Below, in pieces: positions 7,301 to 59,362 of a stretch of 64,000 bases of DNA (the first letter of the stretch is position 1; each line of letters starts with the position of its first letter). The DNA is taken from positions 161,002 through 225,001 of the forward strand of contig WVYN01000014.1 in assembly GCA_011772965.1 (NCBI GenBank), written 5' to 3'. Both the position numbers and the translations under genes were made by a program. The notes beneath the pieces were generated by a model that saw only the letters and a program-made list of their open reading frames with translations, was not told where the DNA came from and did no database searches. Source of the stretch: Gammaproteobacteria bacterium. Its GTDB lineage: Bacteria; Pseudomonadota; Gammaproteobacteria; Eutrophobiales; Eutrophobiaceae.

Positions 7301-7738
7301 ATCTTCGAGTAATTCCGGTTGCGCACCGAGCCCGGACAACAAGGGCATCTGTCGTGTTAGCCAAGCACACAAGGAGTCAATGGTCTGGATTCGCAGACGA
7401 CCGGGGTTATTCTCCAGTTGCCAGTCCAGATCCTTGTCACGGGCGAGTACGCTAATTGCCATTTCATGAGTCAGTCGTGTGGCGTCGTCTTCCGGCTGTA
7501 CACCTGTCCTCGCCCTATGCAATGCCGTGATGATCCTGGATCGCATCTCCGCTGAAGTCTTGCGGGTAAAAGTGATGGCAATGATTTCTTCAGGTGATTC
7601 AACCGTTGCAAGCAATCGTAGATAGCGCTGGATCAACAACTCGGTTTTTCCTGAGCCAGCCGGTGCCTGCACGATAAAAGATGACTCCACAGATAATGCC
7701 TTTTGTCTTTCAGGATAATCAAAAACTTTGTGGGTCAT
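4352..7738 (-). CDS. addA: AddA-type ATP-dependent helicase/nuclease (UvrD/REP superfamily 1 helicase with a C-terminal RecB-like PD-(D/E)XK nuclease)
   Basis: It has a Walker A motif APAGSGKT and UvrD-like motifs such as FLVGDPMQSIYRFR. The C-terminal IIDYKTS forms a nuclease motif. It is 1128 aa and overlaps the upstream gene by 4 bp. Confidence 0.8.
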   Translation of the reverse strand: MTHKVFDYPERQKALSVESSFIVQAPAGSGKTELLIQRYLRLLATVESPEEIIAITFTRKTSAEMRSRIITALHRARTGVQPEDDATRLTHEMAISVLARDKDLDWQLENNPGRLRIQTIDSLCAWLTRQMPLLSGLGAQPELLEDATEIYHQAAANTLTDLESGEYWSEAVARLLSHLDNDLPRVKAMIATLLQRRDQWLRHIGREIDRQELETAFQHAVASTLENIAARFPQVYQNEILQYLRYAASNLYADKPESAIAQCRDITQFPGSTATDLPVWRAIANLCLTGANQWRKRVDKTIGFPKPEANSAETENRKEMKDGLQSLLSRLSGDESLSEGLVEIHLLPPLHFAEDEWQIVKALCELLLMADSHLRVLFAERNQIDFNGIMLAAIDALGQDDNPTDLALRLDYRIKHLLIDEFQDVSNNQYKLIEKLTAGWSPGDGHTLFLVGDPMQSIYRFREAEVGLFINTWKQKRLGQIPLDPLKIEVNFRSQAGIVNWVNRAFEVIFPDLADSYRGAVSYEPAQAFLPETEHTAVQAHAILDEIDEAKRITALIKNSQRQDPDRCLAILVRNRSHLLEITTHLRANNLAYNAVEIEPLSHRPEIQDLLALTRALDHPADRIAWFAVLRAPWCGITLDDLLLVGEKTQLTIREAINATDRMKGLSADGRSRLAAIGPKLQHALEQRCRRTLRRSVESLWMNLGGPATLEDESALENVEVFFDLLEDFDVGGRLSDSNQFMEQVDNLFALPAHVDDRLQIMTIHKAKGLEFDMVILPELHRGSRSNESQLLLWAESPHVQHQDLLLAPIKPAGSDDSPFYDYLNELEKQKQDHEVGRLLYVAATRARQELHLFAAIPLDSETGECKRPGKNSLLKHLWPVLEEEYKALAIATRQNSQIQVNQDQQVISSGLHRFTSDWRLPDAPADISVPVSFDYSAMPEVMPEYEWAGETIMHIGSVVHRFLQIIAEDGIERWTQDYINSESTRFETSLRQLGVTQQDIDWATDQVILALASTIADEKGRWILDTRHEQATCELPLTGIIDNRVVNVILDRTFIDSEDQRWIIDYKTSRHEGPDIQEFLDQEEERYASQLKKYAVLMQAMENRPVKLGLYFPLLGQWREINIHSKA

Positions 7739-10425
7739 TCTTTTTCCCCGTCTGTTATCGAATCTTTCTGTTTTTCATAAATGCGGCAAAATGAATGCAG
7801 ATCACACCTGATCCTGGTGCAGGTTGTATTGTCCTTGGGATCGACTCTGGCTATACCATGGCGAAAGTCACCGGCCAGCGAATCCAGCATTGTACGCCAT
7901 TGAATCAGCAGGTCAGGCCAATCCTTCACCGATTCCCTGGCCAGCTTCGATCCGTTAATGCTTTTTATACCTGGCAGCACGTTCTCATCATCTGACAGGC
8001 CACTAAACTTGATCTCACCCCTGCGTAGTTTGAGGAAGGCAACCGCGGCAACATCTCCATCGCTGTTAATTGCATACAGGGGCAACTGTGGTTCATCCGG
8101 ACGTTCACCCAGCCAGGCCGAGGCATTGGGTACAATAGAACCTGTCTTGTAATCGATAACAACCAGACGTCCGTCCTTTAATTGATCGACCCGGTCAATA
8201 CGCGTGATGATTTCGATATCATTGATCATGAATATATGTTTCAGCTCACATTCACTAACGGTAAACGCTTGTCTTTTCTTTTCGAGTTCAGCCAGTTCTA
8301 CCAGCAGAAGCTTTAGGCGGTTACATTCAATGTCGGTAAAGCGATCGGTAAACGTAAACGGCAACTGCTGTTGGTAACGTTTAACTATCCGCTTCACCAC
8401 AGCATCGACCACTTGTTCAAGTTGTGTAGCGGTCAATTGCAAAAGGTTTTCCAGACTGCCAGTCTCTCTCCAGAATTGTTCAACAACAGCATGTGCGATT
8501 GAGCCGCGTTCCAAGGCATCCAGCCCGATATCAGGAGACTTGAGACCTTCTGTCGCCAGCCGGTGGCGTGCAAATGCGCGGAAAGGACAGGCTGCCTGGT
8601 CCTTGAAAATGGCAGTTCCACCACTCAGCCTGACACCCTCAGGAATGGCCCGCACCTGATCATCAGGTAATGTTTCAATGCTTTTGCTGCCAAGCAAGTG
8701 ATTTGCATAGGATTTGAAAACAGGTATGTCAGGCGATGTCCCTGACAGATATTGCCGAATCAGGGCACTGGGTTGATAGACCTGATCTTTTTCCATCTCC
8801 GGGTAACTTAAAACAACCTCGGGTGACGAAGAGATTAACCGTTTCAGTAACATACTGGCGTGAACCAGAAAATTGCCGGGCGAGGCTGCGGGCAGGCCTA
8901 CGTCCCTCTGTAATGCTATCGGGATAAACGCATTGGGTACTTCCTGGCCGGGCCAGGCATTGTCATGCAGGTTCATGATCCAGAGATGGTCGAACTGCAT
9001 GCCGGCTGCACCATTGATACCCAGTATCTGTATGGAGGCCTCCCGGGTCTCGGGCTGGAATCGCTCGCTGGCCAGTAAGCTTCGCAATTGGCCCAGAGCG
9101 TCCTGATAAGTCATATCCTTACTGACGAGATCCAGCCTGGCCAGGTTATCCAGCGATGACTGCCACTCAAGCAGGGTCTGGTATTCATCACTGTCAAGCG
9201 ACCGTTCTCCTGGCCAGGCAAACAGCTCAAGTATTTGCGTAAAGAACTGCACCCATCTTGAAGGACTTTGCCGCGAGTCAGTGTTGGCAAACAGACGACC
9301 ACAGGCAAGGTAGGTCTCCAAAAAGATTGCTGGCACAATATCCGGGCTTAACTTCCCTCTTTCAATTAAAGTTTGCAGCTGTTGACGGGACACGTATGCC
9401 TCACAGGACTTGCGGATGGCTGCATCAAATTTTGCCCGGCACTGGCCTTCCTGCATTGATGCCTTTATGAAAGGTGAACGTAACAGTCTGCTGAATTCTT
9501 CCAGTTCTAGTGAGCACCTGCCCAGGGATAGGATCCGCAATGCTTCGACTATCATTGGGAAAGCGGATAAGGGACGTCCCAGGGAAACACTGAAACAGGA
9601 GGATTGCATGCCGGCGTTATCGAGAATGGTGCCGGGGTGCAGGACATCCTCAAATACGTTTTTAATTTCATGGGCCAGGTTGGCGAGCTTATTTACAACT
9701 ATACCAATACGCTGCCCCGGATTTTCCTCGAGCCGGGTCCGGGCCCAGCTGGCCGCGGTATACAACTCGGTGCGGTTGTCACGGAAAGCAAATGCCCGGG
9801 TCTCGATATTGCTCTGTTCAAGCGGTACTTCACGAATTTCACAGCCCTGCTCAGCCAGTCGCTGCAGGAGCTGGCATTGTTGCGGGGTGAGTTGATCGAA
9901 ACCGACCAGTGCCAGTTTCTCGGGACCTGGAATGAATTCATGCTGCATCGAGAGCAGTGTTGCCAATCCCGCCTGGTCAACCCAGTCCCGCTGTTCACAA
10001 ATTTTCCGGTACTCTTCTGACCAGAGCCGAAACGCATGGGCGTCATCATGGACATAGACTCCTTCCGGAAATATGGGGATCAGCCACTCATGGCATAACT
10101 GCCAGGATTGCATGGCCAGCCGGGCCGTTTGGCTCCGATTGAGCAGTCGCCTGCCATAGGGAGAGCGGTTGATAATGTCTGACCAGAGGTAGAGCTGCTG
10201 GGGTGTTGAGAGCAGCACCCGGTCGAGTTGCCGGGTAAAAACGAATTCCTTCCAGCAGCGTTGAAGCCAGCCCTGCCAGGGCAAGATATCCGGTGTCTGC
10301 CATGCTAACCTGCCCTGATCGGCCTGTTCCAATGCATACTGGTGTTGCAATGCACGGCTTAAACGGGTGGTAGGCGTGAGGAGACAATATCCTTGGTCCA
10401 GCAGCTGCCCTGATTCTTTATTCAT
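7735..10425 (-). CDS. addB: AddB-type double-strand-break repair protein (inactive helicase-like N-terminus, C-terminal PD-(D/E)XK nuclease with a 4-Cys Fe-S staple)
   Basis: The 896-aa protein has no Walker A motif. Its C-terminus has the VVIDYKTGS nuclease motif and the cysteines C..CTRIRCDLHSFC. It is translationally coupled to addA. Confidence 0.7.
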   Translation of the reverse strand: MNKESGQLLDQGYCLLTPTTRLSRALQHQYALEQADQGRLAWQTPDILPWQGWLQRCWKEFVFTRQLDRVLLSTPQQLYLWSDIINRSPYGRRLLNRSQTARLAMQSWQLCHEWLIPIFPEGVYVHDDAHAFRLWSEEYRKICEQRDWVDQAGLATLLSMQHEFIPGPEKLALVGFDQLTPQQCQLLQRLAEQGCEIREVPLEQSNIETRAFAFRDNRTELYTAASWARTRLEENPGQRIGIVVNKLANLAHEIKNVFEDVLHPGTILDNAGMQSSCFSVSLGRPLSAFPMIVEALRILSLGRCSLELEEFSRLLRSPFIKASMQEGQCRAKFDAAIRKSCEAYVSRQQLQTLIERGKLSPDIVPAIFLETYLACGRLFANTDSRQSPSRWVQFFTQILELFAWPGERSLDSDEYQTLLEWQSSLDNLARLDLVSKDMTYQDALGQLRSLLASERFQPETREASIQILGINGAAGMQFDHLWIMNLHDNAWPGQEVPNAFIPIALQRDVGLPAASPGNFLVHASMLLKRLISSSPEVVLSYPEMEKDQVYQPSALIRQYLSGTSPDIPVFKSYANHLLGSKSIETLPDDQVRAIPEGVRLSGGTAIFKDQAACPFRAFARHRLATEGLKSPDIGLDALERGSIAHAVVEQFWRETGSLENLLQLTATQLEQVVDAVVKRIVKRYQQQLPFTFTDRFTDIECNRLKLLLVELAELEKKRQAFTVSECELKHIFMINDIEIITRIDRVDQLKDGRLVVIDYKTGSIVPNASAWLGERPDEPQLPLYAINSDGDVAAVAFLKLRRGEIKFSGLSDDENVLPGIKSINGSKLARESVKDWPDLLIQWRTMLDSLAGDFRHGIARVDPKDNTTCTRIRCDLHSFCRIYEKQKDSITDGEKE

Positions 10426-10542: not shown

Positions 10543-11541
10543 ATGCTCAACCCCAGACTAGAAACAGAAATAGCCAGGCCGCCCGCCTGTATACCTGTAT
10601 CACCCGCAAAAGTGGTTCCGGATATCATTGATGATGCAAGAGAAGGCCTGTTGTTCCCGCCACGGAGCCTGCCACCAAAGTATTTCTATGACGAAAAAGG
10701 TTCTCAATTATTCACCAAGATCTGTGAAACGGATGAATATTATCCCACTCGCACGGAGGACGGGCTGCTGGCAAGAAATGCCGGGAATATTATTGCCATT
10801 TCCAGGCCGGCTCAAATAATCGAGCTGGGAAGTGGCAATTCCGGGAAAACCCGGCGCCTGTTTAACGCCTGTGAACAGATTGATCATACCTGCAGTTATG
10901 CTCCTTTCGATGTCTGCGCCCCGATGCTGGAAGACACTGCAGGACAATTACAAACCGAATATGAATGGCTCAAGGTGACACCATTGCTGGGCGACTACCA
11001 CGCTGGACTGGATCACCTGCCAGGATTCAATGAGAGGCGACTTTTTGTTTTTCTCGGTAGTACCATCGGAAATTTTAAACCGGCCGAAGCCAGGGCATTC
11101 ATTCGTGAAATTACAGATGCCATGGCTCCAGGTGATTACCTGCTGCTCGGTATAGACAGAGTCAAGGACGTGCAGGTATTGAATGACGCCTACAATGATA
11201 GCGGTGGAATGACGGCAGCATTTAACCTGAATCTACTAAACGTACTGAACAGAGAGCTGGATGCTGATTTTGATCTGAGCCATTTCAATCACCATGCAAG
11301 TTATCAATCCAGACATTCACGCGTAGAGATGAAACTTGTGTGTGATACGTTACATGAAATACAACTCAAGAAAATTGATGAGGTGATTGAATTGTACCCC
11401 GGTGATGAAATCCTCACGGAACTGAGTCACAAATTTACCTACGGGCAAGCAGAAGAATTACTGTCTGATTGCGGGCTGGATATTGTCTCACATTACGAAC
11501 CGGAAAATCGTTACTTTTCAGTCATTCTGGCAAGGTTCTGA
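10543..11541 (+). CDS. EgtD-family SAM-dependent N-methyltransferase (L-histidine N-alpha-methyltransferase homolog)
   Basis: The motifs LPPKYFYDEKGSQLF, EYYPTRTE, ELGSGNSGKTRRL and LGSTIGNF align along the full length with EgtD. No egtB lies nearby. Confidence 0.7.
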   Translation: MLNPRLETEIARPPACIPVSPAKVVPDIIDDAREGLLFPPRSLPPKYFYDEKGSQLFTKICETDEYYPTRTEDGLLARNAGNIIAISRPAQIIELGSGNSGKTRRLFNACEQIDHTCSYAPFDVCAPMLEDTAGQLQTEYEWLKVTPLLGDYHAGLDHLPGFNERRLFVFLGSTIGNFKPAEARAFIREITDAMAPGDYLLLGIDRVKDVQVLNDAYNDSGGMTAAFNLNLLNVLNRELDADFDLSHFNHHASYQSRHSRVEMKLVCDTLHEIQLKKIDEVIELYPGDEILTELSHKFTYGQAEELLSDCGLDIVSHYEPENRYFSVILARF

Positions 11542-11566
11542 AACAGCCAGCAGCCAGGGATAGAAC

Positions 11567-11974
11567 ATGACGAAAATTAGTAAAAGTGATCAGGAATGGA
11601 AACAAAATCTGACTGAGGAGCAATACAAAATTGCCCGAAAGAAAGGGACCGAGCGGCCTTTTACTGGTAAATATTATACTTGCTCCAAAAAAGGTACCTA
11701 TCTTTGCAGTTGCTGTGGAAATCCCTTATTCAGTTCTGACACCAAATACGATTCTGGCAGCGGCTGGCCGAGTTTTTATGAGCCCATGTCAATACAATCT
11801 ATTGATACCCGGTTTGATGGCAGTTTCGGTATGCGTCGGGTTGAGGTGACATGCAAAAAATGTGACGCACATCTCGGTCACGTTTTTGAAGATGGCCCGG
11901 ACCCAACCGGATTAAGGTATTGCATCAATTCGATATCACTGAACCTGAAGGAAGATAACGGGAAAACCAATTGA
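11567..11974 (+). CDS. msrB: Peptide-methionine (R)-S-oxide reductase MsrB (cytoplasmic, Zn-binding 2xCxxC type)
   Basis: It has the SelR motifs GWPSF and RxEVxCxxCxxHLGHVFxDGP plus two CxxC pairs. The protein is 135 aa. Confidence 0.85.
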   Translation: MTKISKSDQEWKQNLTEEQYKIARKKGTERPFTGKYYTCSKKGTYLCSCCGNPLFSSDTKYDSGSGWPSFYEPMSIQSIDTRFDGSFGMRRVEVTCKKCDAHLGHVFEDGPDPTGLRYCINSISLNLKEDNGKTN

Positions 11975-38262: not shown

Positions 38263-40386
38263 ATGAATCTGAAAAAAACACCATTACTGGCAAATACAGT
38301 TCTGTGCATTCTCGAGAGTCTGCTGGCTGCGGCCATTGGTACTGTATTCCTGGTGTGTCTCGTCCTGTTGCTGTCTGGTATTGCCAGTGCCAATACCAGG
38401 GAAGGTATGACAGCGATGGACACCCTCAGCATCAGGGACATGGGAAACGTCACCCGTGGAAGTCTGTTGTTTCACAACAATAAGGATTATCAACTTGCCC
38501 CGACATTACATACAGATGTTGATATGAGTATCACGGGCATGATCGCCCGGGTCAAGCTGGCACAACGGTTTCATAATCCCGACACGGTCTGGCAGGAAGG
38601 CATTTATGTCTTTCCCTTGCCCGAGAATGCGGCGGTAGATCACCTGCGCATGAGGATAGGCAAAAGAGTGATAGAGGGGCAGATACGAGAACGTGAAACT
38701 GCAAAAAAAGAATATCAAAAGGCACGTGATAATGGTCAGAAAGCAAGCCTTGTGGAACAGGAACGCCCGAATATTTTTACGACTTCTGTTGCCAATATTG
38801 GTCCCGGTGAGGAGATAATCATTGAAATTGAATACCAGCAGACAGTTCGTTATGACTCAGGTGAGTTCCGCCTCAGGTTCCCGATGGTTGTTGCGCCGAG
38901 ATATATTCCGGGCAGTACAGTTGTTCAAGGCTTTTCAGGATCAGGTTGGGCAGTTAATACTGATCAGGTGCGGGATGCCGAACGCATTACCCCGCCTGTG
39001 ACAAAACCCGGTGAGACAGCAGTTAATCCGGTGATGATCGACATCCACCTGGACGCGGGCTTTCCCCTGGAGCATATCACCAGTTCCCATCATAACATCC
39101 GGATAGATCAGCAGGACGCATCAACGTATTCCATTCAACTGGAGCATGTAACCATGGCCGACAGAGATTTCGAACTTTACTGGCAACCCGAAAAGAAAGA
39201 TGCCCCACAGGCAGCATTCTTCAGGGAACGAAAACACAACATGGATTATGGATTGATCATGATGCTGCCACCCTTACAGCAAAGTGGTCAGGTGCTCAAT
39301 CGTGAGGTGGTGTTTGTGATTGATACCTCTGGTTCCATGGGTGGTCAGTCCATTATACAAGCGAGATCGGCATTAAAGATGGCTCTTGAACGCCTTAAAC
39401 CCGGCGACAGTTTCAACATTATCGAATTCAATTCACATACAGATCAGTTGTTCGAATGGCCGCGATTGGTAAATCATCAATCTTTAAGACAGGCAAAGCA
39501 ATATGTAACTGGTCTGGATGTCAGTGGCGGTACAGAAATGTTACCGGCTCTGAAACTGGCATTGAATGATAACAATAATACATCTTCGGTCAGGCAGGTA
39601 ATTTTCCTGACAGATGGCAGCATTGGCAATGAAGCCGCCCTGTTTAACACCATCACCCGGAAACTGGGCAGGAGCCGGCTATTTACAATCGGGATTGGTT
39701 CTGCACCAAATTCACATTTCATGACCAGGGCTGCACGCTTTGGCCGGGGTACCTACACATACATCGGCAAGGTCAGCGAGGTCGAAACAAAAATGTCGAC
39801 ATTATTTGGCAAACTGGAAAGCCCTGTTCTTACCAACATCCACATAGACTGGGGCGATGCCACAGACCTGGAAGCCTGGCCAAAGTACATTCCCGATCTC
39901 TATCTGGGCGAACCCCTGCTGGTAAGTGTCTCCGCTTCATCACTGCCGGAAAGGATTCGGTTAACAGGCAGCGTCTCCGGTTCACTCTGGAAAACCAGCA
40001 TGCAATTAAAAGGCCATGGTGAACATGAAGGCATCCACGCCCTTTGGGCCCGAAAAAAAATTGCGGCTTTGATGGACCTGCTCAATCAGGCAAAAGAGGA
40101 AAACAACCTTAAACAGCAAGTTATAGAGACTGCATTACGACATCACCTGGTGAGCCGGTTTACCAGCCTCATTGCTGTTGACGTTACCCCGTCGCGCATC
40201 AAGGAGGATTTACTGAGGATATCTGCCCTGCCGGTCAACCTTCCGTCCGGCTGGCAATATGAAAAAGTATTCGGTCAGTTGCCGCAGACCGCAACAGATG
40301 CGGAACTGAAAATCCTGATAGGCACGCTGCTGCTGTTAATCAGTGTGTTTCTTGTGATGAGCCGGCGTTATGTTTATCCCGACTGA
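38263..40386 (+). CDS. Sortase target protein: VIT domain plus von Willebrand factor A domain, with a C-terminal LPQTA sorting signal, TM helix and basic tail
   Basis: The VWA MIDAS motif is DTSGSMGG. The C-terminus reads LPQTATDAELKILIGTLLLLISVFLVMSRRYVYPD. The protein is 707 aa. Confidence 0.75.
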   Translation: MNLKKTPLLANTVLCILESLLAAAIGTVFLVCLVLLLSGIASANTREGMTAMDTLSIRDMGNVTRGSLLFHNNKDYQLAPTLHTDVDMSITGMIARVKLAQRFHNPDTVWQEGIYVFPLPENAAVDHLRMRIGKRVIEGQIRERETAKKEYQKARDNGQKASLVEQERPNIFTTSVANIGPGEEIIIEIEYQQTVRYDSGEFRLRFPMVVAPRYIPGSTVVQGFSGSGWAVNTDQVRDAERITPPVTKPGETAVNPVMIDIHLDAGFPLEHITSSHHNIRIDQQDASTYSIQLEHVTMADRDFELYWQPEKKDAPQAAFFRERKHNMDYGLIMMLPPLQQSGQVLNREVVFVIDTSGSMGGQSIIQARSALKMALERLKPGDSFNIIEFNSHTDQLFEWPRLVNHQSLRQAKQYVTGLDVSGGTEMLPALKLALNDNNNTSSVRQVIFLTDGSIGNEAALFNTITRKLGRSRLFTIGIGSAPNSHFMTRAARFGRGTYTYIGKVSEVETKMSTLFGKLESPVLTNIHIDWGDATDLEAWPKYIPDLYLGEPLLVSVSASSLPERIRLTGSVSGSLWKTSMQLKGHGEHEGIHALWARKKIAALMDLLNQAKEENNLKQQVIETALRHHLVSRFTSLIAVDVTPSRIKEDLLRISALPVNLPSGWQYEKVFGQLPQTATDAELKILIGTLLLLISVFLVMSRRYVYPD

Positions 40387-40993
40387 AAAAATATTATTTA
40401 TTTGCTTACTCACTACTGTGACCTTTTGTGGCTTGTGGCAGGTAGGTCATGGTGCCTACATCCATGCCAAGGCAATCCTAGCGCAACTCCTCCTAGAGTC
40501 GGCATGGTCAGAAACACTGTCCGGGGCAAGGGAGGTGAAACCATGGCCCTGGGCAGATACCTGGCCAGTCAGCCGACTTGCTGCCCCACGCCTTGGGATA
40601 AGCCGCATCGTCCTGGCCGGGGCAAGTGGTGCTTCACTTGCCTTCGGTCCAGGACATCTTTTTGGTACGGCGCCCGCAGATCAAGCGGGAAACAGCGTCA
40701 TTGCCGGTCACAGGGATACACATTTTAGATTTCTGCAATACCTGACCGATGGCGATATATTGTTGCTTGAAACCAGTGAAGGAAAACAAAGACGATATCA
40801 GGTAACACTTACCCGGGTTATCCATGAAAGTGAAATCGGCTACCTGCAGCAGACCAGAGAAAATCGCCTGACGCTTATTACCTGTTTTCCCTTCAACAGC
40901 CCGGTGGCCGGTGGTGCACAACGATATATTGTCATTGCCCGGGAAATCGAGAAGGTAGATGGGATTGATTCCGGGGCAATAATTGCCATCTAG
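40370..40993 (+). CDS. Sortase (proteobacterial/marine type transpeptidase)
   Basis: It has an N-terminal TM anchor, the catalytic His in AGHRDTHF, the catalytic Cys in LTLITCFP, and a downstream Arg. It overlaps the target gene by 17 bp. Confidence 0.75.
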   Translation: MFIPTEKILFICLLTTVTFCGLWQVGHGAYIHAKAILAQLLLESAWSETLSGAREVKPWPWADTWPVSRLAAPRLGISRIVLAGASGASLAFGPGHLFGTAPADQAGNSVIAGHRDTHFRFLQYLTDGDILLLETSEGKQRRYQVTLTRVIHESEIGYLQQTRENRLTLITCFPFNSPVAGGAQRYIVIAREIEKVDGIDSGAIIAI

Positions 40994-45174: not shown

Positions 45175-45579
45175 TCAGATCTTGCTCATGCTGCAGGGGT
45201 AATTCTTATTAAGCGCTTCGGTGACCAGCTTGTAGGCATCTTCCTCCAGGCGTGCCGGTTGCTGCTTTAACCAGTCGGTAGTCGTCTCGGTTACTTCCTG
45301 CAGGCTTACCTGGGTAGGGTCAATACAGAACACTCTCGGCTGTGTAGGGTCGGCCTGCTGGAAAGAGTCGACCACCTGCACCAACCCGAATATGTAACGC
45401 ATGCAATACTGGTTCGGGGCACCCGGGGCCGCGCCTTCCTCGCAGCCATCCAACAGCTCTCTGCCCGAGAGCGCCTCTTCCTCCTCAACGGCTTGCCCTT
45501 CGGGCAGTGGTTCCGCTGCAATCAGCGGCAATGAAAGGACAAGTAATAGGGCAAAATTCGTAATTTTCAGTGTTTTCAT
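45175..45579 (-). CDS. Hypothetical secreted protein with four Cys residues
   Basis: The 134-aa ORF has a signal peptide and lies 5 bp downstream of ttcA on the same strand. Confidence 0.4.
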
Positions 45580-45740
45580 CAGGTTTTCCAGATTATAAGT
45601 CGGTGGATTCTATCATTTGTGAATTTCCCGGAAAAACATAATTCCGACAAGAGGCGTAGATACCCGGGAACCAGTGACAAGGAAATATGACCTGTCAGAA
45701 CAATCGACTGCAACAAGTTACTGGAGTTCCAGGCAGGTAA

Positions 45741-51013: not shown

Positions 51014-51475
51014 ATGTCTAACTACGAAAATCTAAAATTGGATAATCAGTTGTGTTTCGCACTCTATGCTGCAACCAACGCTATCATTCGTTCGTACCGT
51101 CTCCGCCTCAGCAAGGTCGGCCTTACCTATCCCCAGTATCTGATACTCGTGGCATTGTGGGAGACAAATGGAATAACCATCAAGGGTCTGGGTGATCGTT
51201 TGCATCTCGATTCAGGCACCTTGACGCCCATTCTCAAAAGGTTGGAAAGTGTGGGAATCCTGAGTCGTGAACGTAATAAAAACGATGAAAGAGTGGTGAA
51301 TATCCGTTTGACAAAAACGGGGAAGGACCTCGAGCATCAAGTTGCGAAAATACAGAGCGCAGTAGCCTGTGAGACAGGGTTGGAACAACTGGAGTTTGTA
51401 AAACTACGCACAGCCTTGCATGAACTCGCTGCCACGATGATTGAAAAACAGCACGATAGCAAGACGGCAGCTTGA
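51014..51475 (+). CDS. ohrR: MarR-family regulator of the OhrR type (organic hydroperoxide sensor)
   Basis: It has the OhrR hallmark LDNQLCFALY with the sensing Cys near residue 25, and a winged-HTH domain. Confidence 0.7.
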   Translation: MSNYENLKLDNQLCFALYAATNAIIRSYRLRLSKVGLTYPQYLILVALWETNGITIKGLGDRLHLDSGTLTPILKRLESVGILSRERNKNDERVVNIRLTKTGKDLEHQVAKIQSAVACETGLEQLEFVKLRTALHELAATMIEKQHDSKTAA

Positions 51476-51515
51476 CCGTGTCTGGTGAATAATAAATCCT
51501 AAGGAGGTTAAGAAA

Positions 51516-52013
51516 ATGAGTCAAATATCAATTCGAATGATGCTAATCAGCAGTGCAATGATTGCATCCCTATCTCTTGTGTCCACATCAGCAATCGCCG
51601 CAGAGGAAAAGTCCCTCTTTGAGCGACTGGGCGGTACCTATGCCATCGCCCAGACCGTTGATCACCTGGTTAACAAGCTCTACGTGAACAATGGCTTGAA
51701 TGCCAACCCGATTATCAAGGCAATCCATGACGATAAGTCAACCATGCCTGGTTTCAAGGTTATGCTGACCAACTGGGTGGTTGCAAGAACCGGTGGTCCC
51801 AAGATCTATCAGCCGGACATGTTCGGCCGAGGCGTGGGAATGAAGGAAAGCCATGCGCACCTGAATATCAGTAATCGTGAGTTCGATATCATCATGAATG
51901 AATGCAAGAATACTTTCTACACATTTAACGTACCGGAAAAGGAACTCGGTGAGTTGATGGCAGACCTGGAAAGCTTTCGTAATGAAATCGTCACTTTCCC
52001 TCATAAGGAATAA
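51516..52013 (+). CDS. Group I truncated hemoglobin (2/2 Hb) with an N-terminal signal peptide
   Basis: The trHbN B-helix motif SLFERLGG..AI..VDHLVNKL is present. It is preceded by an MLISSAMIASLSLVSTSAIAAEE leader. Confidence 0.65.
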   Translation: MSQISIRMMLISSAMIASLSLVSTSAIAAEEKSLFERLGGTYAIAQTVDHLVNKLYVNNGLNANPIIKAIHDDKSTMPGFKVMLTNWVVARTGGPKIYQPDMFGRGVGMKESHAHLNISNREFDIIMNECKNTFYTFNVPEKELGELMADLESFRNEIVTFPHKE

Positions 52014-52059
52014 GCTTCAGTCCTGAATAACAATCAACAACAAAGCGTTGTAATATTCA

Positions 52060-52083
52060 AGCCCGCAGACGTGGGCTTTTTAT
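52060..52083 (+). terminator. Rho-independent terminator after the globin gene
   Basis: The stem-loop AGCCCGC-AGAC-GUGGGCU is followed by UUUUUA. Confidence 0.6.
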
Positions 52084-52180: not shown

Positions 52181-52341
52181 ATGCCAGGATTAGAGGATGA
52201 GAAGCATGCTACGGAAAGCCTGCTGGGAGAACCTGAGCCCTGGGAAAGCTGGGAATCAAAGCTCGTAGCTGCGTGCCTGATTACTGCTATTATCGGCTTG
52301 GTGCTTCTCGGTTGGTTGATACACATCTTTATCCTCAACTA
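52181..52341 (+). CDS. Candidate 53-aa small membrane protein, absent from the ORF track because it is under 60 aa
   Basis: An ATG is preceded by the RBS GGAGAGAG. The acidic N-terminus is followed by one TM helix, LVAACLITAIIGLVLLGWLIHIF. Confidence 0.35.
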
Positions 52342-52352
52342 AGAGGGTATAG

Positions 52353-52643
52353 ATGGCTCCCGAGATTGATATTCCGCTCTCATTTGATGGTACTCATTGG
52401 CTAGCAGGCTTTAATGAAAACCTGTTTCGGGCTTCTGATTTAACTCAACTCGAAAAGTATATTTCAGAAGCAATTTGTCATATTCCTAGCTACACCGATA
52501 AGCCTATTGTAAATATCCGGCTAGTATTTGATAACGATTCACTGCCGGTCTGGTTACGGCAATACCATAGCCATTATTTCAATTACCTGCTTATAGTCCG
52601 GTTGCCAGTGAGCAGTCAAACAACCATGGCAAGCAGATACTAA
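52353..52643 (+). CDS. Hypothetical protein, possibly a HicB-like (DUF1902) antitoxin-type domain
   Basis: FDGTHWLAGF..DLTQLEKYISEAI weakly resembles the HicB N-terminal domain. The protein is 96 aa. Confidence 0.3.
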   Translation: MAPEIDIPLSFDGTHWLAGFNENLFRASDLTQLEKYISEAICHIPSYTDKPIVNIRLVFDNDSLPVWLRQYHSHYFNYLLIVRLPVSSQTTMASRY

Positions 52644-54145
52644 TGGCCACCGTAAATCGGAAATGGAATGACGGCATGCTCAGTACTGAGGACTGGTGGG
52701 CCGTCTGGCTGGGTCTCATCATGTTTTTGGCCGGGATGATGTCTATCTGGGGACTGGATCTTGTCGGCTGGATGGGTAAAACGAAGACTTGGGAATTTAC
52801 CAACCTGTTGGATGATTTTGCCTGGAGTAAACTGATCAAACCGGCTGGCAAATCCTATTCTGATACCGCACCGCTGTTGTCACTTTTTATCACTTATGCC
52901 GTATTCACTACACTGACCTGCATTGGTGCCTGGTTCCAGAAACTCGACGTCAGGAAATTCTTCATCAGCTTTACGATCATTTTCATTCTCACCTGGTTAT
53001 GCTGGATTATCGGCCATGAGGCGCATTTCAAGGCCATTGATGCCGCCGTTAAAGGTAAAAATGTATTCCAGCAATACGATTTGAGCTGGGGTCTGCAACT
53101 TGGTGGTGGATTTTCCTACATGCTGGCACTGGCCGTGGGACTTATTATCGGCAATGTCTTCAAGGGCTTTGCCGCGTTTCTCAAGGAAGCGGCAAAACCG
53201 GAGTGGTTTATAAAAACTGCAATTGTCTATCTCGGTATCAAGCTGGGCCTGATGTCGATGCAGTCCACAGCTTATGTCGTTGAACTCGCACTTGCCGGTG
53301 CAGCTGCCGTGTTTGTAGCCTACCTGCTGTTCTGGCCGATCGTATACTGGCTGGCGCGCCGTGTTTTCCGGTTAAGACGTGACGCCTCGGCGGTGCTTTC
53401 ATCAGGAATTTCTATCTGTGGCGTATCGGCCGCAATCGCAACCGCTGGCGCTATCCGTGCCAAGCCGATATTGCCCGTCACGGTGTCCATGCTGATTGTG
53501 ATCTTCGCCATGATAGAACTTGTGGTTCTACCAACAACCTATACTGCACTGGCACCAAATCAACCGATAGTGAATGGTGCGGCCATGGGAATGACGGTAA
53601 AAACAGACGGTGCCGATGCCGCCGCTGGCGCTATTCTGGATGAATTGATGGTTAGCCAGCATTTACAGAAAACAGGTGAACATTGGCAGGAAGGCTGGAT
53701 ACTGAGTGCTGCCATACTCACCAAGATATGGATAGATGTTTTTATTGGAGTCTGGGCCTTCCTGCTCGCCCTGATCTGGATATACAAGGTAGAACAGAGG
53801 CCTGGACAGGTCACTGTTCAGCTTTCCGAGATATGGTTCCGTTTCCCGAAATTTGTCATTGGCTATTTCATCGCCTGGTTTTTCTATGTCGGCATCGCCG
53901 TTTATTTTCCAGAGGCGATTGAGAACGCCGCGGATGGAGCTAGCGTAGTACAAAGCCCGATGCGAAAAATGATGTTCATGCTGACCTTTGTGAGCATCGG
54001 CATCATAACCGATTTCAGCAAGCTCAAAGGCATGGGCAGGCTTGCTATACTGTATGGCATTGCATTGTTCCTGATAATTGCGCCGATCGCCTATGCCGTT
54101 GCCTGGATTTTTCATCGCGGTATGCTGCCACCGCTTGTTGAATGA
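52643..54145 (+). CDS. Polytopic inner-membrane protein, putative transporter of unrecognised family
   Basis: The 500-aa protein has about 12 predicted TM helices. Its start overlaps the previous ORF's stop. Confidence 0.45.
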   Translation: MATVNRKWNDGMLSTEDWWAVWLGLIMFLAGMMSIWGLDLVGWMGKTKTWEFTNLLDDFAWSKLIKPAGKSYSDTAPLLSLFITYAVFTTLTCIGAWFQKLDVRKFFISFTIIFILTWLCWIIGHEAHFKAIDAAVKGKNVFQQYDLSWGLQLGGGFSYMLALAVGLIIGNVFKGFAAFLKEAAKPEWFIKTAIVYLGIKLGLMSMQSTAYVVELALAGAAAVFVAYLLFWPIVYWLARRVFRLRRDASAVLSSGISICGVSAAIATAGAIRAKPILPVTVSMLIVIFAMIELVVLPTTYTALAPNQPIVNGAAMGMTVKTDGADAAAGAILDELMVSQHLQKTGEHWQEGWILSAAILTKIWIDVFIGVWAFLLALIWIYKVEQRPGQVTVQLSEIWFRFPKFVIGYFIAWFFYVGIAVYFPEAIENAADGASVVQSPMRKMMFMLTFVSIGIITDFSKLKGMGRLAILYGIALFLIIAPIAYAVAWIFHRGMLPPLVE

Positions 54146-54220: not shown

Positions 54221-54643
54221 ATGATAAAAATGTACAAGGCTCTGAATATTATCCTGGTTATACTTTTTACCTGTTCCCTTCCTGTCTCCGCCGAACTACT
54301 ACTGGAAACAGAGACTTCATGGGATAGTGGTCGTATCAATTACCCGGATGGCAGGCCCGAAATAACCTCCTTGATTCTCAGACTTGAAGAGGGGGTGATC
54401 ACCAGGTTTCACTGCCACCCGGTACCTACCCTCGGCTATGTCCTGAAAGGAAAAATCAAGGTAGAAACCATTGAGGGCAAAACTGCAGTTTTCTCAGAAG
54501 GTGAATCCGTCGTTGAGGTCATGAATACACTGCACCGGGGAACTGCAGTCGCAGGACCGGTAGAGGTTGTAGTGTTTTATGCCGGTGCCCGGGGCATGCC
54601 GAATACGGTCTACCCTGAAGATTCATCAGATGCTTGCAAATAA
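54221..54643 (+). CDS. Secreted cupin-domain protein
   Basis: It has a signal peptide and a cupin beta-barrel containing FHCHP. Confidence 0.55.
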   Translation: MIKMYKALNIILVILFTCSLPVSAELLLETETSWDSGRINYPDGRPEITSLILRLEEGVITRFHCHPVPTLGYVLKGKIKVETIEGKTAVFSEGESVVEVMNTLHRGTAVAGPVEVVVFYAGARGMPNTVYPEDSSDACK

Positions 54644-54738
54644 GCTTGTATTGCCCGTTTGCCGAGACAACTTTTTAATCCCTTATGGAACTGTAGACCC
54701 GCAAACCGGTCTGTGATTGTATCCCCGAGGAGAAAACT

Positions 54739-55257
54739 ATGGACCGCAGAGATTTTCTGAAACAGCTTGGTGTTATAACCGGTTCTCTACTCATACCCTA
54801 CAGCCATGTCTTTGCCCATGAAGTGAACGAAAATTTAAAATTTACACCCCTGGACAAGCCGGATTCCCAATGGCGCAAATTAGTATCGGCAGACCAGTTT
54901 CACATCCTCTTTGATGAAGGTACCGAACCACCCGGTTCCAGCCCCCTGGACAGGGAGAAACGGGCCGGTACGTTTATCTGTGCGGCCTGCTACCTGCCCT
55001 TATTTGAATCGGAAACGAAATATGACAGCGGCACCGGTTGGCCCAGTTTTTACGAGCCTATTACCGGGCGTGTCGAAACCAAACTGGACCTCAAGCTGGT
55101 CTGGCCACGTACCGAATACCACTGCGCGCGTTGTGGTGGTCATCAAGGCCATGTTTTTAATGACGGTCCCCCGCCCACGGGCAAGCGTTATTGTAATAAC
55201 GGCCTGGCATTAAAGTTTATACCGGCTGATCAATCCCTGCCTGAACTGCGAGGTTAG
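54739..55257 (+). CDS. msrB: Periplasmic (Tat-exported) methionine-R-sulfoxide reductase MsrB
   Basis: The twin-arginine leader MDRRDFLKQLG precedes the SelR motifs GWPSF and CARCGGHQGHVFNDGP and two CxxC pairs. Confidence 0.75.
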   Translation: MDRRDFLKQLGVITGSLLIPYSHVFAHEVNENLKFTPLDKPDSQWRKLVSADQFHILFDEGTEPPGSSPLDREKRAGTFICAACYLPLFESETKYDSGTGWPSFYEPITGRVETKLDLKLVWPRTEYHCARCGGHQGHVFNDGPPPTGKRYCNNGLALKFIPADQSLPELRG

Positions 55258-55258
55258 T

Positions 55259-55843
55259 ATGAGACAACTAGTCTTTTTTCTTTTGATTTCTTTCTCGAGT
55301 TTCAGCGTGTTTGCTGAAACGGCGGTGGCCACCTTTGCCGGCGGTTGTTTCTGGTGCATGGAGCCGCCGTATGACAAGCTGGATGGCGTCATCAGTACCA
55401 CATCAGGCTATACCGGTGGTCACCTGGACAACCCTACTTACAAGCAGGTATCGAGCGGCAAGACCGGTCATTATGAAGCCGTGCAGGTGGAATATGACCC
55501 GGACAGGGTCAGCTACCAGGAGTTACTGGACGTTTTCTGGGCCAATGTTGATCTCTTTGATTCCAAGGGCCAGTTCTGCGACAAGGGACCACAGTACCGG
55601 GCAGCGATTTTTGTCCAGAATGACGAGGAAGAAAAACTCGCCAGGCTAAGCAAACAGGCCCTTGAAGGAAAAACCGGGAAAGGCCTCCAGGTAGTCACGG
55701 AGATCCTGCCGACCAGTACCTTCTATCCCGCCGAGGAGTATCACCAGGATTATTATCAGAAAAATCCTGTCCGCTATAATTATTACCGTTTTGCATGCGG
55801 CAGGGATCGCCGCCTGGAAGATGTGCAGCAATTAATCAATTGA
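55259..55843 (+). CDS. msrA: Secreted (Sec signal) methionine-S-sulfoxide reductase MsrA
   Basis: It has a signal peptide and the MsrA active site AGGCFWC with EPPYD. It begins 1 bp after the msrB stop. Confidence 0.75.
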   Translation: MRQLVFFLLISFSSFSVFAETAVATFAGGCFWCMEPPYDKLDGVISTTSGYTGGHLDNPTYKQVSSGKTGHYEAVQVEYDPDRVSYQELLDVFWANVDLFDSKGQFCDKGPQYRAAIFVQNDEEEKLARLSKQALEGKTGKGLQVVTEILPTSTFYPAEEYHQDYYQKNPVRYNYYRFACGRDRRLEDVQQLIN

Positions 55844-57318: not shown

Positions 57319-57493
57319 AGTTCTATATTTATAGTACTAGAGTGGATATAAGCCCAGAGCGGGCATAAGGAGTATCCCCCCTACGAGCTTAATTTGTTGT
57401 TTTTTACTCCATATTGTTTTATAGCCATGCGCTGTTTCTCTCTGCATGGTTCTTACTCATAAATATGCTGGAATAAGTAGGGGGGCAAAGCAT

Positions 57494-59362
57494 ATGGCAA
57501 GTATTAACGGTACTTCTGACGATCTCTCGCATGCAGGTAACCCCAACCATAAGAAGAGCTTATCTGAAGGCGCAATAAAAAACCGCTGGCTAATTGCAGC
57601 GTCTGCCGTTGGTATCCATATCTCTATAGGCTCAGTATATGCCTGGAGTGTCTTTAACCTCCCTCTTGAAAATGCCTTTGGCTGGGGGAAAAGCGATATA
57701 GCCATCACATTCAGCCTGGCAATTTTCTTCCTGGGCATGTCCGCTGCAGTCATGGGTCATTTTGTCGAACGTCATGGACCCAGGAAATCAGGCATGGTCG
57801 CTGCATGTTTTTGGGGTACAGGCCTCATAGTCGCCAGCCTGGGAGTGAAATTCGGGATTATCCAGATTTTATGGCTTGGTTACGGTGTGCTCGGCGGAAT
57901 CGGCCTGGGGATTGGCTACATAACGCCAGTATCAACTCTGGTGAAATGGTTTCCTGATCGTCGCGGCCTGGCAACCGGCCTTGCCATCATGGGCTTTGGT
58001 TTCGGCGCGGCCATCGGCGCCCCTGTCTACAACTATATCATGTCTGATGTGACTGCCGGCAAGCTCGGTATGAGCGAGGAAATCTATCGCTCTGGTATCT
58101 CCAGTTACAATTCCGCAAAAAAAATCCTCAAGGAAATTCATGTTCACAACGACTCTGCGGAAGACTATGACATGGAATGGTTATTCTCCGCCGTTACCGC
58201 TGCAAACAAGGATGAAGTACTGGCTTTATTACCGGAAAAGCTGGCAAAGGATGCTGACCCACAACTGGATAAGCTCAATACGTCACTGACTGATTTTCAA
58301 CTGGCACCCTTCTGGAATATGAGGAACACGGACAAGTTCAGGAGTGCCATCGCATCCGGAATTTCTACAAACTTCCTCATTGTTGGCCTCACCTACCTGG
58401 TAATCATGTTTGCGGCGGCAAGTTATATCGCACGCCCGCCACAAGGCTGGATGCCGGCCAGCATGAAGGCCGCTGTCGATTCCGGCAAGAAAAAAATCAT
58501 ACCTGATTTGACTCAGATGACCGCCAACGCGGCAGTCAAAAAGGCGCCTTTTTATGGCTTGTGGATCATGATGTTTATCAACATCTCCTGCGGTATAGGT
58601 ATCATTTACACCGCATCACCACTGGCCCAGGAGAGCATCGGGCTGACTCCCGGTGAAGCGGCGGCCGTAGTCGGCATGATGTCTATCTTCAATGGCCTGG
58701 GTCGCATAGGCTGGGCATCTTTCTCCGATTTGCTGGGGCGCGCCAATACCTACACGTTGTTTTTTGTAGTCGAGATTTTTGCCTTCTATTTTCTACCCAA
58801 TATTACCAGCATTATCATGTTCCAGGTGGTGCTCTACCTGATCCTGACCATGTACGGCGGCGGCTTTGCAACATTGCCGGCCTACATAGGCGACCTGTTT
58901 GGCACAAAACAACTGGGGGCGATCCATGGTTATGTACTTACCGCATGGGCAATGGCCGGGGTATTCGGACCGCAGATTGTTGCTCGCCTCTATGAAGCCA
59001 CCGGTTCCTATGAAACCGTGTTGCACATCTTTGCCGGTGTCTTTGCCTTTGCCCTGGCGGTCAGCATCCTGATGACCATACACACCATCAAAGCACGTAA
59101 CCGCATGACGGCTGTAACTGTTTTTAAATATGAAAACGAGGACTTTATTCGAACCCAGACGACCTTGTTAAACGAGGACGGCAAGTCCGCCATCAATACA
59201 AAACTGGACCGGAATAATCCCAGTTACGCAGCACTTTTGCAAAAGAACTCGTTTACGGGAGAGGCGACCATATTTGGCCGCCTTTACGAGACGTACTATG
59301 CACCGCTGACAGATGAGTCAGGAAAACTGACCGGTGCCATATTCGTCGGCAATCAAAAATAG
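57494..59362 (+). CDS. MFS transporter (oxalate/formate antiporter-like family) with a long central cytoplasmic loop and an extra C-terminal soluble domain of about 100 aa
   Basis: There are 12 TM helices split 6+6 around a loop of about 110 aa. The C-terminal tail FKYENEDFIRTQTTLLNEDGKS...GAIFVGNQK lies beyond the last TM helix. Confidence 0.65.
   Translation: MASINGTSDDLSHAGNPNHKKSLSEGAIKNRWLIAASAVGIHISIGSVYAWSVFNLPLENAFGWGKSDIAITFSLAIFFLGMSAAVMGHFVERHGPRKSGMVAACFWGTGLIVASLGVKFGIIQILWLGYGVLGGIGLGIGYITPVSTLVKWFPDRRGLATGLAIMGFGFGAAIGAPVYNYIMSDVTAGKLGMSEEIYRSGISSYNSAKKILKEIHVHNDSAEDYDMEWLFSAVTAANKDEVLALLPEKLAKDADPQLDKLNTSLTDFQLAPFWNMRNTDKFRSAIASGISTNFLIVGLTYLVIMFAAASYIARPPQGWMPASMKAAVDSGKKKIIPDLTQMTANAAVKKAPFYGLWIMMFINISCGIGIIYTASPLAQESIGLTPGEAAAVVGMMSIFNGLGRIGWASFSDLLGRANTYTLFFVVEIFAFYFLPNITSIIMFQVVLYLILTMYGGGFATLPAYIGDLFGTKQLGAIHGYVLTAWAMAGVFGPQIVARLYEATGSYETVLHIFAGVFAFALAVSILMTIHTIKARNRMTAVTVFKYENEDFIRTQTTLLNEDGKSAINTKLDRNNPSYAALLQKNSFTGEATIFGRLYETYYAPLTDESGKLTGAIFVGNQK

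Follow-up and report, generated by a model that had tools for sequence, protein, structure and literature searches.

A two-gene msrB–msrA locus with predicted Tat and Sec leaders points to thiol-based repair of oxidized methionine outside the cytoplasm

Introduction

How might a Gram-negative bacterium repair oxidized methionine outside its cytoplasm with classical, thiol-type methionine sulfoxide reductases (Msr) to which no thioredoxin (Trx) domain is fused? The question is raised by positions 54221–55843 of a 64-kb stretch of gammaproteobacterial DNA (contig WVYN01000014.1; the whole stretch of 64,000 nucleotides is referred to below as the window), where a gene for an MsrB with a predicted twin-arginine translocation (Tat) leader is followed by a gene for an MsrA with a predicted general secretory (Sec) leader. 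Reviews attribute the periplasmic repair of methionine sulfoxide (Met-O) in Gram-negative bacteria to MsrPQ, describe periplasmic thiol-type Msr enzymes only as fusions in Neisseria, Helicobacter and Haemophilus, and place single-domain MsrA and MsrB mostly in the cytoplasm (PMC8076862, PMC8945050, PMC13488963), and yedY has sometimes been found linked to msrA/msrB genes (PMC4436054). An earlier note on this DNA, made from the sequence alone, held that exported MsrA/B are known mainly as the Trx-fused PilB of Neisseria, a view that has to be widened since the periplasmic MsrAB of Haemophilus influenzae works without a Trx fusion (PMC9404787); its Trx is a separate protein encoded in the same operon together with CcdA, under the control of RpoE2 (PMC9404787, PMC7907618). 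In Neisseria and Haemophilus alike, exported MsrAB is under the control of an extracytoplasmic function (ECF) sigma factor (PMC7907618).

Results

As read from the sequence, 54221–55843 holds three open reading frames (ORFs) on the + strand, encoding a cupin, MsrB and MsrA. The msrB gene (54739–55257, +, 172 aa precursor) ends with a TAG stop codon at 55255–55257, and after a single base the ATG of msrA follows (55259–55843, +, 194 aa precursor); the ORF coordinates thus agree with the earlier note, which had placed a Sec-leader msrA 1 bp behind msrB. MsrB matched PF01641 (SelR; 144 bits, cut-off 24.9, 2e-42) and TIGR00357 (144 bits, cut-off 113), and MsrA matched PF01625 (PMSR; 210 bits, 3e-62) and TIGR00401 (195 bits, cut-off 108). 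Each of the two proteins contained a single Pfam domain, bifunctional NCBIfam models matched partially and far below their cut-offs, and neither protein matched the MsrPQ-type domains (molybdopterin catalytic subunit and haem-b partner). With no Trx domain and with a stop codon between msrB and msrA, the arrangement is not a PilB-type fusion.

The catalytic C152 of MsrB, located in RYCNN, aligned with the catalytic Cys of E. coli MsrB and of human MsrB3 and was invariant in 119 family members, as were the zinc-site cysteines C81/C84 (CAAC) and C129/C132 (CARC), which form two CxxC pairs. At the resolving position, where E. coli MsrB has Cys (SGCGWPSF), all 119 members carried Thr (SGTGWPSF), and the protein was therefore assigned to the 1-Cys type and not to the 2-Cys type of E. 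coli. Since the five cysteines of MsrB are the four zinc ligands and C152, and the resolving site is occupied by Thr, turnover would leave a sulfenic acid for an external thiol; likewise, the sulfenic acid of mammalian MsrB2/B3 and plant MSRB1 is resolved by an external thiol (PMC7475093, PMC6316033). Judged by the four conserved cysteines, MsrB is probably loaded with zinc. A further feature of the family is a C-terminal tail, L-P-x-L-R(G) (residues 167–172, 55237–55254), conserved in at least 118 of 119 members and not present in E. coli MsrB.

In MsrA, the GGCFWC motif was present in all 120 homologues compared, and the four cysteines C30, C33 (GCFWC), C107 and C180 were invariant in 49 MsrAs encoded next to a Tat-type msrB. 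C107 lies in GQFCDKG, at a position held by Asn or Pro in solved MsrAs, and C180 in YYRxxCGRD; the two might form either a structural disulfide or a shuttle disulfide.

Both proteins begin with a putative signal peptide. Leaders were called by explicit sequence rules combined with conservation, not by a trained predictor. The leader of MsrB, MDRRDFLKQLGVITGSLLIPYSHVFA/HEV, that is MDRRDFLK-QLGVITGSLLIPYSHVFA-HEV (residues 1–26, 54739–54816, +), opens with DRRDFLK, which fits (S/T)RRxFLK, and continues with 18 uncharged, mildly hydrophobic residues (the hydrophobic h-region) up to a V-F-A/H cleavage site (VFA/HEV). It thus combines the features of a Tat signal, namely the motif, an uncharged and moderately hydrophobic h-region of at least 13 residues and a site of the A-x-A type. 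Of the 120 MsrB homologues nearest to it (66–97% identical, nearly all 170–174 aa), 118 contained RRxF[LI], and in an alignment of 119 sequences R4 was invariant while R3 was found in 117, A26 in 115 and H27 in 114. Together with the invariance of the four zinc-site cysteines, this bears out the earlier proposal of a zinc-type MsrB with the twin-arginine leader RRDFLK.

The leader of MsrA, MRQLVFFLLISFSSFSVFA/ETA, that is MR followed by QLVFFLLISFSSFSVFA and ET (residues 1–19, 55259–55315, +, predicted cleavage VFA/E), shows the basic n-region, strongly hydrophobic h-region and small residues at −3 and −1 expected of a Sec signal cleaved by signal peptidase I (SPase I), as does the leader of the cupin. 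The rules for n-, h- and c-regions were satisfied by 114 of 119 MsrA homologues, only two of which contained RR, and a hydrophobic leader preceded GGCFWC in 49 of 50 msrA genes located downstream of a Tat-type msrB, so that the Sec signal noted earlier for MsrA is well supported. The best 12-residue window of the h-region was on average less hydrophobic in the MsrB leaders than in the MsrA leaders (means 1.80 and 2.44, p ~1e-30), as expected for the Tat and the Sec pathway, respectively. Export of MsrB and MsrA is a prediction, and on these leader patterns both very probably act outside the cytoplasm.

The positions of the start codons agree with this prediction. A GAGGAG ribosome-binding site (RBS) lies at 54727–54732 (+), 6 nt 5' of the msrB ATG, GGAGAAA was kept in an alignment of five orthologous msrB upstream regions, and the conserved GGAG supports the upstream ATG as the start; the sole alternative ahead of the MsrB domain is a GTG at codon 29 that has no RBS, and there is no ATG or TTG. 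The msrA ATG is preceded at a distance of 5 nt by GAGG (55250–55253, +), and in-frame GTG codons occur at codons 17 and 23 of msrA. The earlier note had named true starts further downstream as one finding that would overturn export; the conserved GGAG at the upstream ATG, the lack of an RBS at GTG29 and the conservation of the leaders all speak for the upstream starts.

A second zinc-type msrB in the window (11567–11974, +; SelR 1e-51) encodes a leaderless protein 43% identical to the exported MsrB, as expected for the separate cytoplasmic paralogue that the earlier note had recognized. In the alignment, the first residue of the paralogue falls on residue 35 of the exported MsrB, which marks the N-terminal segment of the latter as an add-on. 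Located 25 nt 5' of this leaderless msrB is a gene for an EgtD-like histidine-specific methyltransferase (PF10017, 3e-101; both genes within 10543–11974), and a link of ergothioneine or betaine to cytoplasmic Met-O repair is possible.

The 95-nt gap between the cupin gene and msrB contains a candidate promoter, GGAACT-N16-GTC (54687–54711, +), ∼50 nt 5' of msrB. KGAACY-N16-GTC was found at −45 to −52 of msrB in all eight gammaproteobacterial loci compared (the window, L007–L010 and L093–L095), whatever gene lies upstream (ctaB, a solute-binding protein gene or the cupin gene) and with the rest of the spacer unconserved, against a frequency of 0.2% in 200-nt background windows. A GGAAC-like −35 and a GTC-like −10 element thus stand at a fixed spacing before orthologous msrB genes, and this comparative evidence suggests an ECF-sigma-type promoter footprint. 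With a conserved promoter footprint in the gap, msrB–msrA would be a transcription unit of its own. A second copy in the window, GGAACY-N16-GTC at 45706–45730 on the − strand, ∼130 nt upstream of a gene for an exported Rap1a-like protein (PF18602; region 45175–45730), is probably due to chance. A different but related motif, GTAAG-N16/17-(C)GAC(C)A, stood 66–234 nt upstream of the Tat-type msrB in 17 of 68 further loci, most of them from Betaproteobacteria (L016, L023, L026, L027, L040, L054, L057, L061–L064, L067, L070, L071, L073, L076 and L079), against 1.3% of background windows. This motif closely resembles the Neisseria sigmaE promoter of msrAB, GTMAGBWTT-N12/13-CGTCTAAH (PMC2893595). 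A scan of 50.7–56.1 kb for sigma-70 promoters and terminators was uninformative, with 10 promoter-like sites against 7.3 expected.

In order to define the distribution of the pair, one genome per GTDB species was scanned, which gave at least 589 MsrB relatives; all counts on 80 loci refer to the best 80 of these. The best 80 were full-length matches with 53–71% identity, most of them spanning the leader. Carriers include Thiotrichaceae, Nitrosomonas, Halopseudomonas, Gallionella, Accumulibacter, other Rhodocyclaceae, Burkholderiales and Xanthomonadales-like taxa and, beyond the Gamma- and Betaproteobacteria, Gemmatimonadota, Vicinamibacteria (Acidobacteriota), Myxococcota and Binatia. In ∼55 of the 80 loci msrA lies directly 3' of the Tat-type msrB. 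A search with the mature domain yielded, among the nearest 150 clusters, 104 complete representatives, of which 37 had Tat-like leaders, ∼35 Sec-like, transmembrane (TM)-like or lipoprotein-like leaders and 12 no leader, and nearly all of which combined the four zinc cysteines with Thr or Ser at the resolving position. This mix of leaders suggests that the 1-Cys zinc MsrB branch is largely extracytoplasmic and that Tat is one of several routes. The earlier note had regarded the Tat leader as consistent with the export of a folded metalloprotein, which is plausible but not compelling, as ∼30 of the 104 are four-Cys MsrBs with Sec, TM-like or lipoprotein-type leaders; the idea that zinc requires Tat is weakened by these Sec- and lipoprotein-type proteins among the nearest cluster representatives. 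Judged by this comparison, Tat fits a zinc MsrB but is not demanded by zinc.

The megaplasmid pKM05 of Rahnella aquatilis (CP034837.1, L096 6998–8251) carries a gene for a Tat-type zinc MsrB (MINRRNFLLG...) followed by one for a leader-bearing MsrA of the GCFWG type, whose N-terminal leader itself contains RR, and this cultured carrier is a possible experimental model. The msrB–msrA genes of an IncP-6 plasmid were considered as relatives and rejected; the 1-nt spacing is the same, but both products are leaderless and the MsrB has no zinc site. On that plasmid (IncP-6 KPC-2 plasmid, NZ_CP151207.1, L097 4082–5066), the msrB and msrA of clinical IncP/IncU plasmids adjoin a glutathione S-transferase (GST)-like gene and corA.

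As for the reductant, Pfam and NCBIfam scans confirmed the earlier observation that there is no Trx domain, and neither these nor a motif scan of the 64-kb window revealed a reductant gene. Clustering of neighbours across the related loci left msrA as the only conserved partner of the Tat-type msrB. Since spurious antisense ORFs contaminated this analysis in GC-rich loci, the neighbourhoods of three relatives were also examined with Pfam annotation, and these contained a CxxxC protein of a cox cluster as the only thiol candidate. This thioredoxin-like protein (PF26971) was set aside as Msr reductant because it is a member of an oxidase-assembly cluster and is absent from the window. As no reductant gene adjoins the pair, the reductant would be encoded in trans, and our best guess is a thioredoxin-fold protein of the general envelope-reducing network, fed by DsbD or CcdA, by analogy with the precedents of PilB/DsbD and of Trx/CcdA in Haemophilus.

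The oxidase cluster is an observation in its own right. In the gammaproteobacterial relatives L007–L010, L014, L093 and L094, the Tat-msrB/msrA pair comes directly after an aa3 oxidase cluster, COX2-COX1-Cox11-COX3-SURF1-PF26971-CtaA-CtaB (∼8 kb upstream of msrB), whose PF26971 member is a thioredoxin-like CxxxC protein of the membrane. The adjacency may hint that Met-liganded CuA or cytochrome c sites are protected by the pair, or it may reflect no more than synteny.

The cupin gene (54221–54643, +, 140 aa; Cupin_2 1.5e-8) ends 95 nt before msrB. Its leader reads M(IKM)YKALNIILVILFTCSLPVSA/ELL, and from the second ATG it reads MYK followed by ALNIILVILFTCSLPVSA and EL (cleavage VSA/ELL). The true start is probably this second ATG at 54230, because it is the consensus start in 84 of 91 aligned sequences, with the predicted leader extending to 54292. 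A signal-peptide-like N-terminus was present in 76 of 91 homologues, and the 91-member family has an invariant H-C-H, E, H and a C-terminal Cys. The AlphaFold2 model (predicted local distance difference test score, pLDDT, 87.5) gave Foldseek matches only to generic metal cupins, e.g. TM1459 and KdgF. The signal-peptide cupin that the earlier note placed upstream is thus present, with a conserved Sec leader, but as shown below it is no conserved partner of the pair. Further upstream, at 52181–54145, lies a trio of genes for a 53-aa ORF product, a DUF5395 protein and a 500-aa YeiH-like (PF03601) membrane protein, and L095, the next-closest lineage, has the same trio ahead of its Msr pair (5936–7906).

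Other features of the window were noted in passing. At 51014–52078, the gene for an OhrR-like MarR regulator (Cys14 in LCFALY; NF052638 1.8e-49, below cut-off) precedes one for a truncated (2/2) globin with a Sec-like leader (...STSAIA/AEE), and a good intrinsic terminator lies at 52059–52078; an exported globin beside a peroxide-sensing regulator would be unusual. Positions 57446–59362 encode a 638-aa L-lactate-type major facilitator superfamily transporter (NF049980, 1e-115) with a C-terminal single-Cache sensor domain, i.e. a transporter–sensor fusion, and at 38263–40993 a gene for a protein with VIT and VWA domains precedes a sortase gene, forming a proteobacterial sortase system.

Discussion

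We consider it probable that msrB–msrA is a self-contained two-gene operon for the thiol-based repair of oxidized Met outside the cytoplasm. In the mechanism we propose, MsrB would acquire its fold, and probably also zinc at its four cysteines, while still in the cytoplasm, be exported by Tat and lose its leader after VFA, while MsrA would be threaded through Sec and likewise be cut after VFA. In the periplasm, MsrB would reduce Met-R-sulfoxide and MsrA Met-S-sulfoxide in envelope proteins, each turnover leaving a sulfenic acid on C152 of MsrB and a C30–C33 disulfide in MsrA, the latter possibly relayed to C107/C180. Both enzymes would be re-reduced by a thioredoxin-fold protein encoded elsewhere and fed from the cytoplasm by a membrane reductase of the DsbD/CcdA type. 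Transcription of the pair probably depends on an ECF sigma factor responsive to oxidative or chlorine stress in the envelope, which is also the case with exported MsrAB in Neisseria and Haemophilus. A bolder version, which we hold to be possible but rather doubtful, is that the pair represents a widespread ECF-controlled system parallel to MsrPQ that is regenerated by a route so far undescribed, e.g. with the general DsbD network (DsbG, DsbC, CcmG-like) directly reducing the MsrB sulfenate and a C107/C180 shuttle disulfide of MsrA. Reduction by the general DsbD network, with no dedicated thioredoxin, would account for the absence of a partner gene that accompanies the pair.

Several observations weigh against the proposed operon and its electron supply. 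A motif scan of all ORFs in the 64-kb window found no ORF with W/F/Y-CxxC, no Trx, CcdA or DsbD family was present among the 38 window ORFs scanned against Pfam, and an exported WCxxC ORF occurred within 10 kb in only two of the 80 related loci, sporadically and of DsbE/TlpA-like type; with no reductant gene by the pair, the electron path is entirely inferred. As to regulation, the window ORFs scanned did not include an ECF sigma gene, and within the window alone the promoter motif is not significant (two matches against 0.75 expected). Finally, initiation at GTG codon 23 of msrA could yield a leaderless form, and MsrA could in this way be localized in both compartments.

Four other explanations of the locus have to be weighed. 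That the leaders are annotation artefacts or vestigial, with translation starting downstream and both enzymes remaining in the cytoplasm, is very improbable. The in-frame GTGs at MsrB codon 29 and at MsrA codons 17 and 23 would permit it, and MsrA read from codon 23 would look like cytoplasmic MsrAs that begin just before ATFAGGCFWC, but the leader features are conserved at the protein level across 55–97% identity, the conserved GGAG precedes the upstream ATG and none precedes GTG29, and the genome already encodes a leaderless MsrB. Less easily dismissed, though still unlikely, is that the N-termini are uncleaved signal anchors which tether both enzymes to the outer face of the inner membrane. 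A hydrophobic N-terminus by itself cannot separate a cleaved peptide from an anchor, lipobox-like sites (LAGC, VSAC, AAGC) in some of the MsrAs encoded beside a Tat-type msrB suggest membrane attachment in other lineages, and both MsrAB2 of S. pneumoniae and MsrA of S. gordonii are bound to the membrane (PMC13488963). Cleavage is favoured here by the small-x-small V-F-A that ends both leaders, by the presence of A26 in 115 of 119 MsrBs and of A-x-A in most MsrA homologues, and by the shortness of the h-regions (17–18 residues).

The remaining two explanations concern what the pair works with and what it works on. The three genes could form one unit in which the exported cupin serves as redox partner, metal donor or dedicated substrate, since both the window and six near-identical contigs, one of which (L003) has a different upstream gene, carry them side by side in one orientation. 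In L095, the next-closest lineage (MsrB 84% identity), a gene for a 58%-identical cupin stands 1.3 kb upstream of msrB–msrA. Two cysteines, one in HCH and one at the C-terminus, are invariant throughout the cupin family, and a chlorite-stress phenotype has been described for a cupin gene in the perchlorate island of Azospira (PMC4436054). Against this, the cupin lies beside msrB only in near-identical contigs, tblastn detected a cupin homologue within 10 kb of the Tat-type msrB in none of the 80 GTDB loci, and three homologues, from Halioglobus, Albibeggiatoa and another genome, stand in unrelated contexts without msr genes. The conserved promoter and the 95-nt gap separate the cupin gene from msrB, two other genes intervene in L095, and the fold is that of a generic metal cupin and not a thioredoxin fold. 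The cupin was therefore rejected as a member of the Msr module, and we regard such a three-gene unit as quite improbable. That the pair mainly serves to scavenge or detoxify, by reducing free or peptide-derived Met-O or other small sulfoxides in the periplasm, likewise has little probability in our view. Free Met-S-O and small sulfoxides are general substrates of MsrA enzymes, whereas MsrB enzymes are poor on free Met-R-O. In H. influenzae, the periplasmic MsrAB shares its stress regulon with small-molecule sulfoxide reductases (PMC13488963), yet it repairs 29 envelope proteins (PMC9404787), and the kept A/B pair fits racemic damage in proteins (PMC8076862).

Thiol-based repair of envelope proteins by the unfused pair can be compared with several known systems. 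Like the window pair, H. influenzae MsrAB provides periplasmic thiol-type MsrA and MsrB activities in a Gram-negative bacterium with no fused Trx. It is, however, a fused MsrA–MsrB with one signal peptide and with Trx and CcdA in its operon, whereas the window encodes two proteins with Tat and Sec signals, in the order msrB–msrA, and no Trx/CcdA in cis; ECF control has been shown in Haemophilus and is inferred in the window from the conserved promoter footprint. Neisseria PilB, a Trx–MsrA–MsrB lipoprotein working via DsbD and controlled by sigmaE/MseR, likewise performs extracytoplasmic repair with classical Msr domains, and the Neisseria sigmaE promoter shares its −35/−10 geometry with the GGAACT-N16-GTC of the window. 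PilB unites three domains in one fusion, a Trx of its own among them, whereas the window proteins are unfused and have no Trx domain, and their MsrB is of the zinc type and Tat-targeted. The MsrB domain of PilB is reportedly without a zinc site. The Trx domain of PilB is reduced by DsbD (cited in PMC3322552). In S. pneumoniae (MsrAB2/Etrx1-2/CcdA1-2) and F. nucleatum (MsrAB-Trx-CcdA), extracytoplasmic thiol-type Msr enzymes are fed by a relay from CcdA to a thioredoxin-like protein (PMC3914529, PMC13488963), but these are fused MsrABs with dedicated Trx/CcdA neighbours, and no such neighbours were found in the window or in 78 of the 80 related loci.

E. coli MsrPQ (YedYZ) occupies the compartment and does the job that we propose for the pair, and MsrP is also a Tat substrate (PMC8076862, PMC4436054). 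It is a molybdopterin enzyme that acts on both stereoisomers with electrons from the respiratory chain, whereas the window proteins are thiol enzymes in need of a disulfide reductant. Also comparable with the window MsrB are mammalian MsrB3A of the endoplasmic reticulum (ER) and the 1-Cys MSRB1 of plant plastids, which share the zinc site and Ser/Thr at the proximal resolving position, and MsrB3 was among the best structural matches to the exported MsrB by sequence. MsrB3A, too, is sent to an oxidizing compartment, and what reduces it there under physiological conditions is not known (PMC7475093). MsrB3 differs in having a CX5C shuttle disulfide behind its signal peptide and in entering the ER in unfolded form, whereas in the Tat-type MsrB family the zinc-site cysteines and the catalytic one are the only cysteines, and the export signal is one for folded proteins.

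The locus thus has its enzymes and compartment in common with PilB and H. influenzae MsrAB, and what sets it apart is the unfused state, the dual targeting by Tat and Sec, the zinc 1-Cys MsrB, the four-Cys MsrA and the lack of an adjoining reductant gene. No paper on a Tat-targeted MsrB or on a stand-alone exported MsrA/MsrB pair was found in a full-text literature search that leaves out most subscription journals, and sequence databases label the exported proteins plainly MsrA and MsrB.

Unlike the picture drawn in reviews, of fusions in a few pathogens, stand-alone exported MsrA and MsrB would be common in environmental Proteobacteria and in other phyla. Their leaders and the conserved ECF-type promoter offer direct experimental handles on the question that the pair raises, namely how a 1-Cys zinc MsrB and a four-Cys MsrA would be re-reduced in an oxidizing compartment without a dedicated thioredoxin gene nearby, the same problem that mammalian MsrB3 poses in the ER. 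The chemistry is not exotic, and the locus points to a widespread system for repair in the bacterial envelope.

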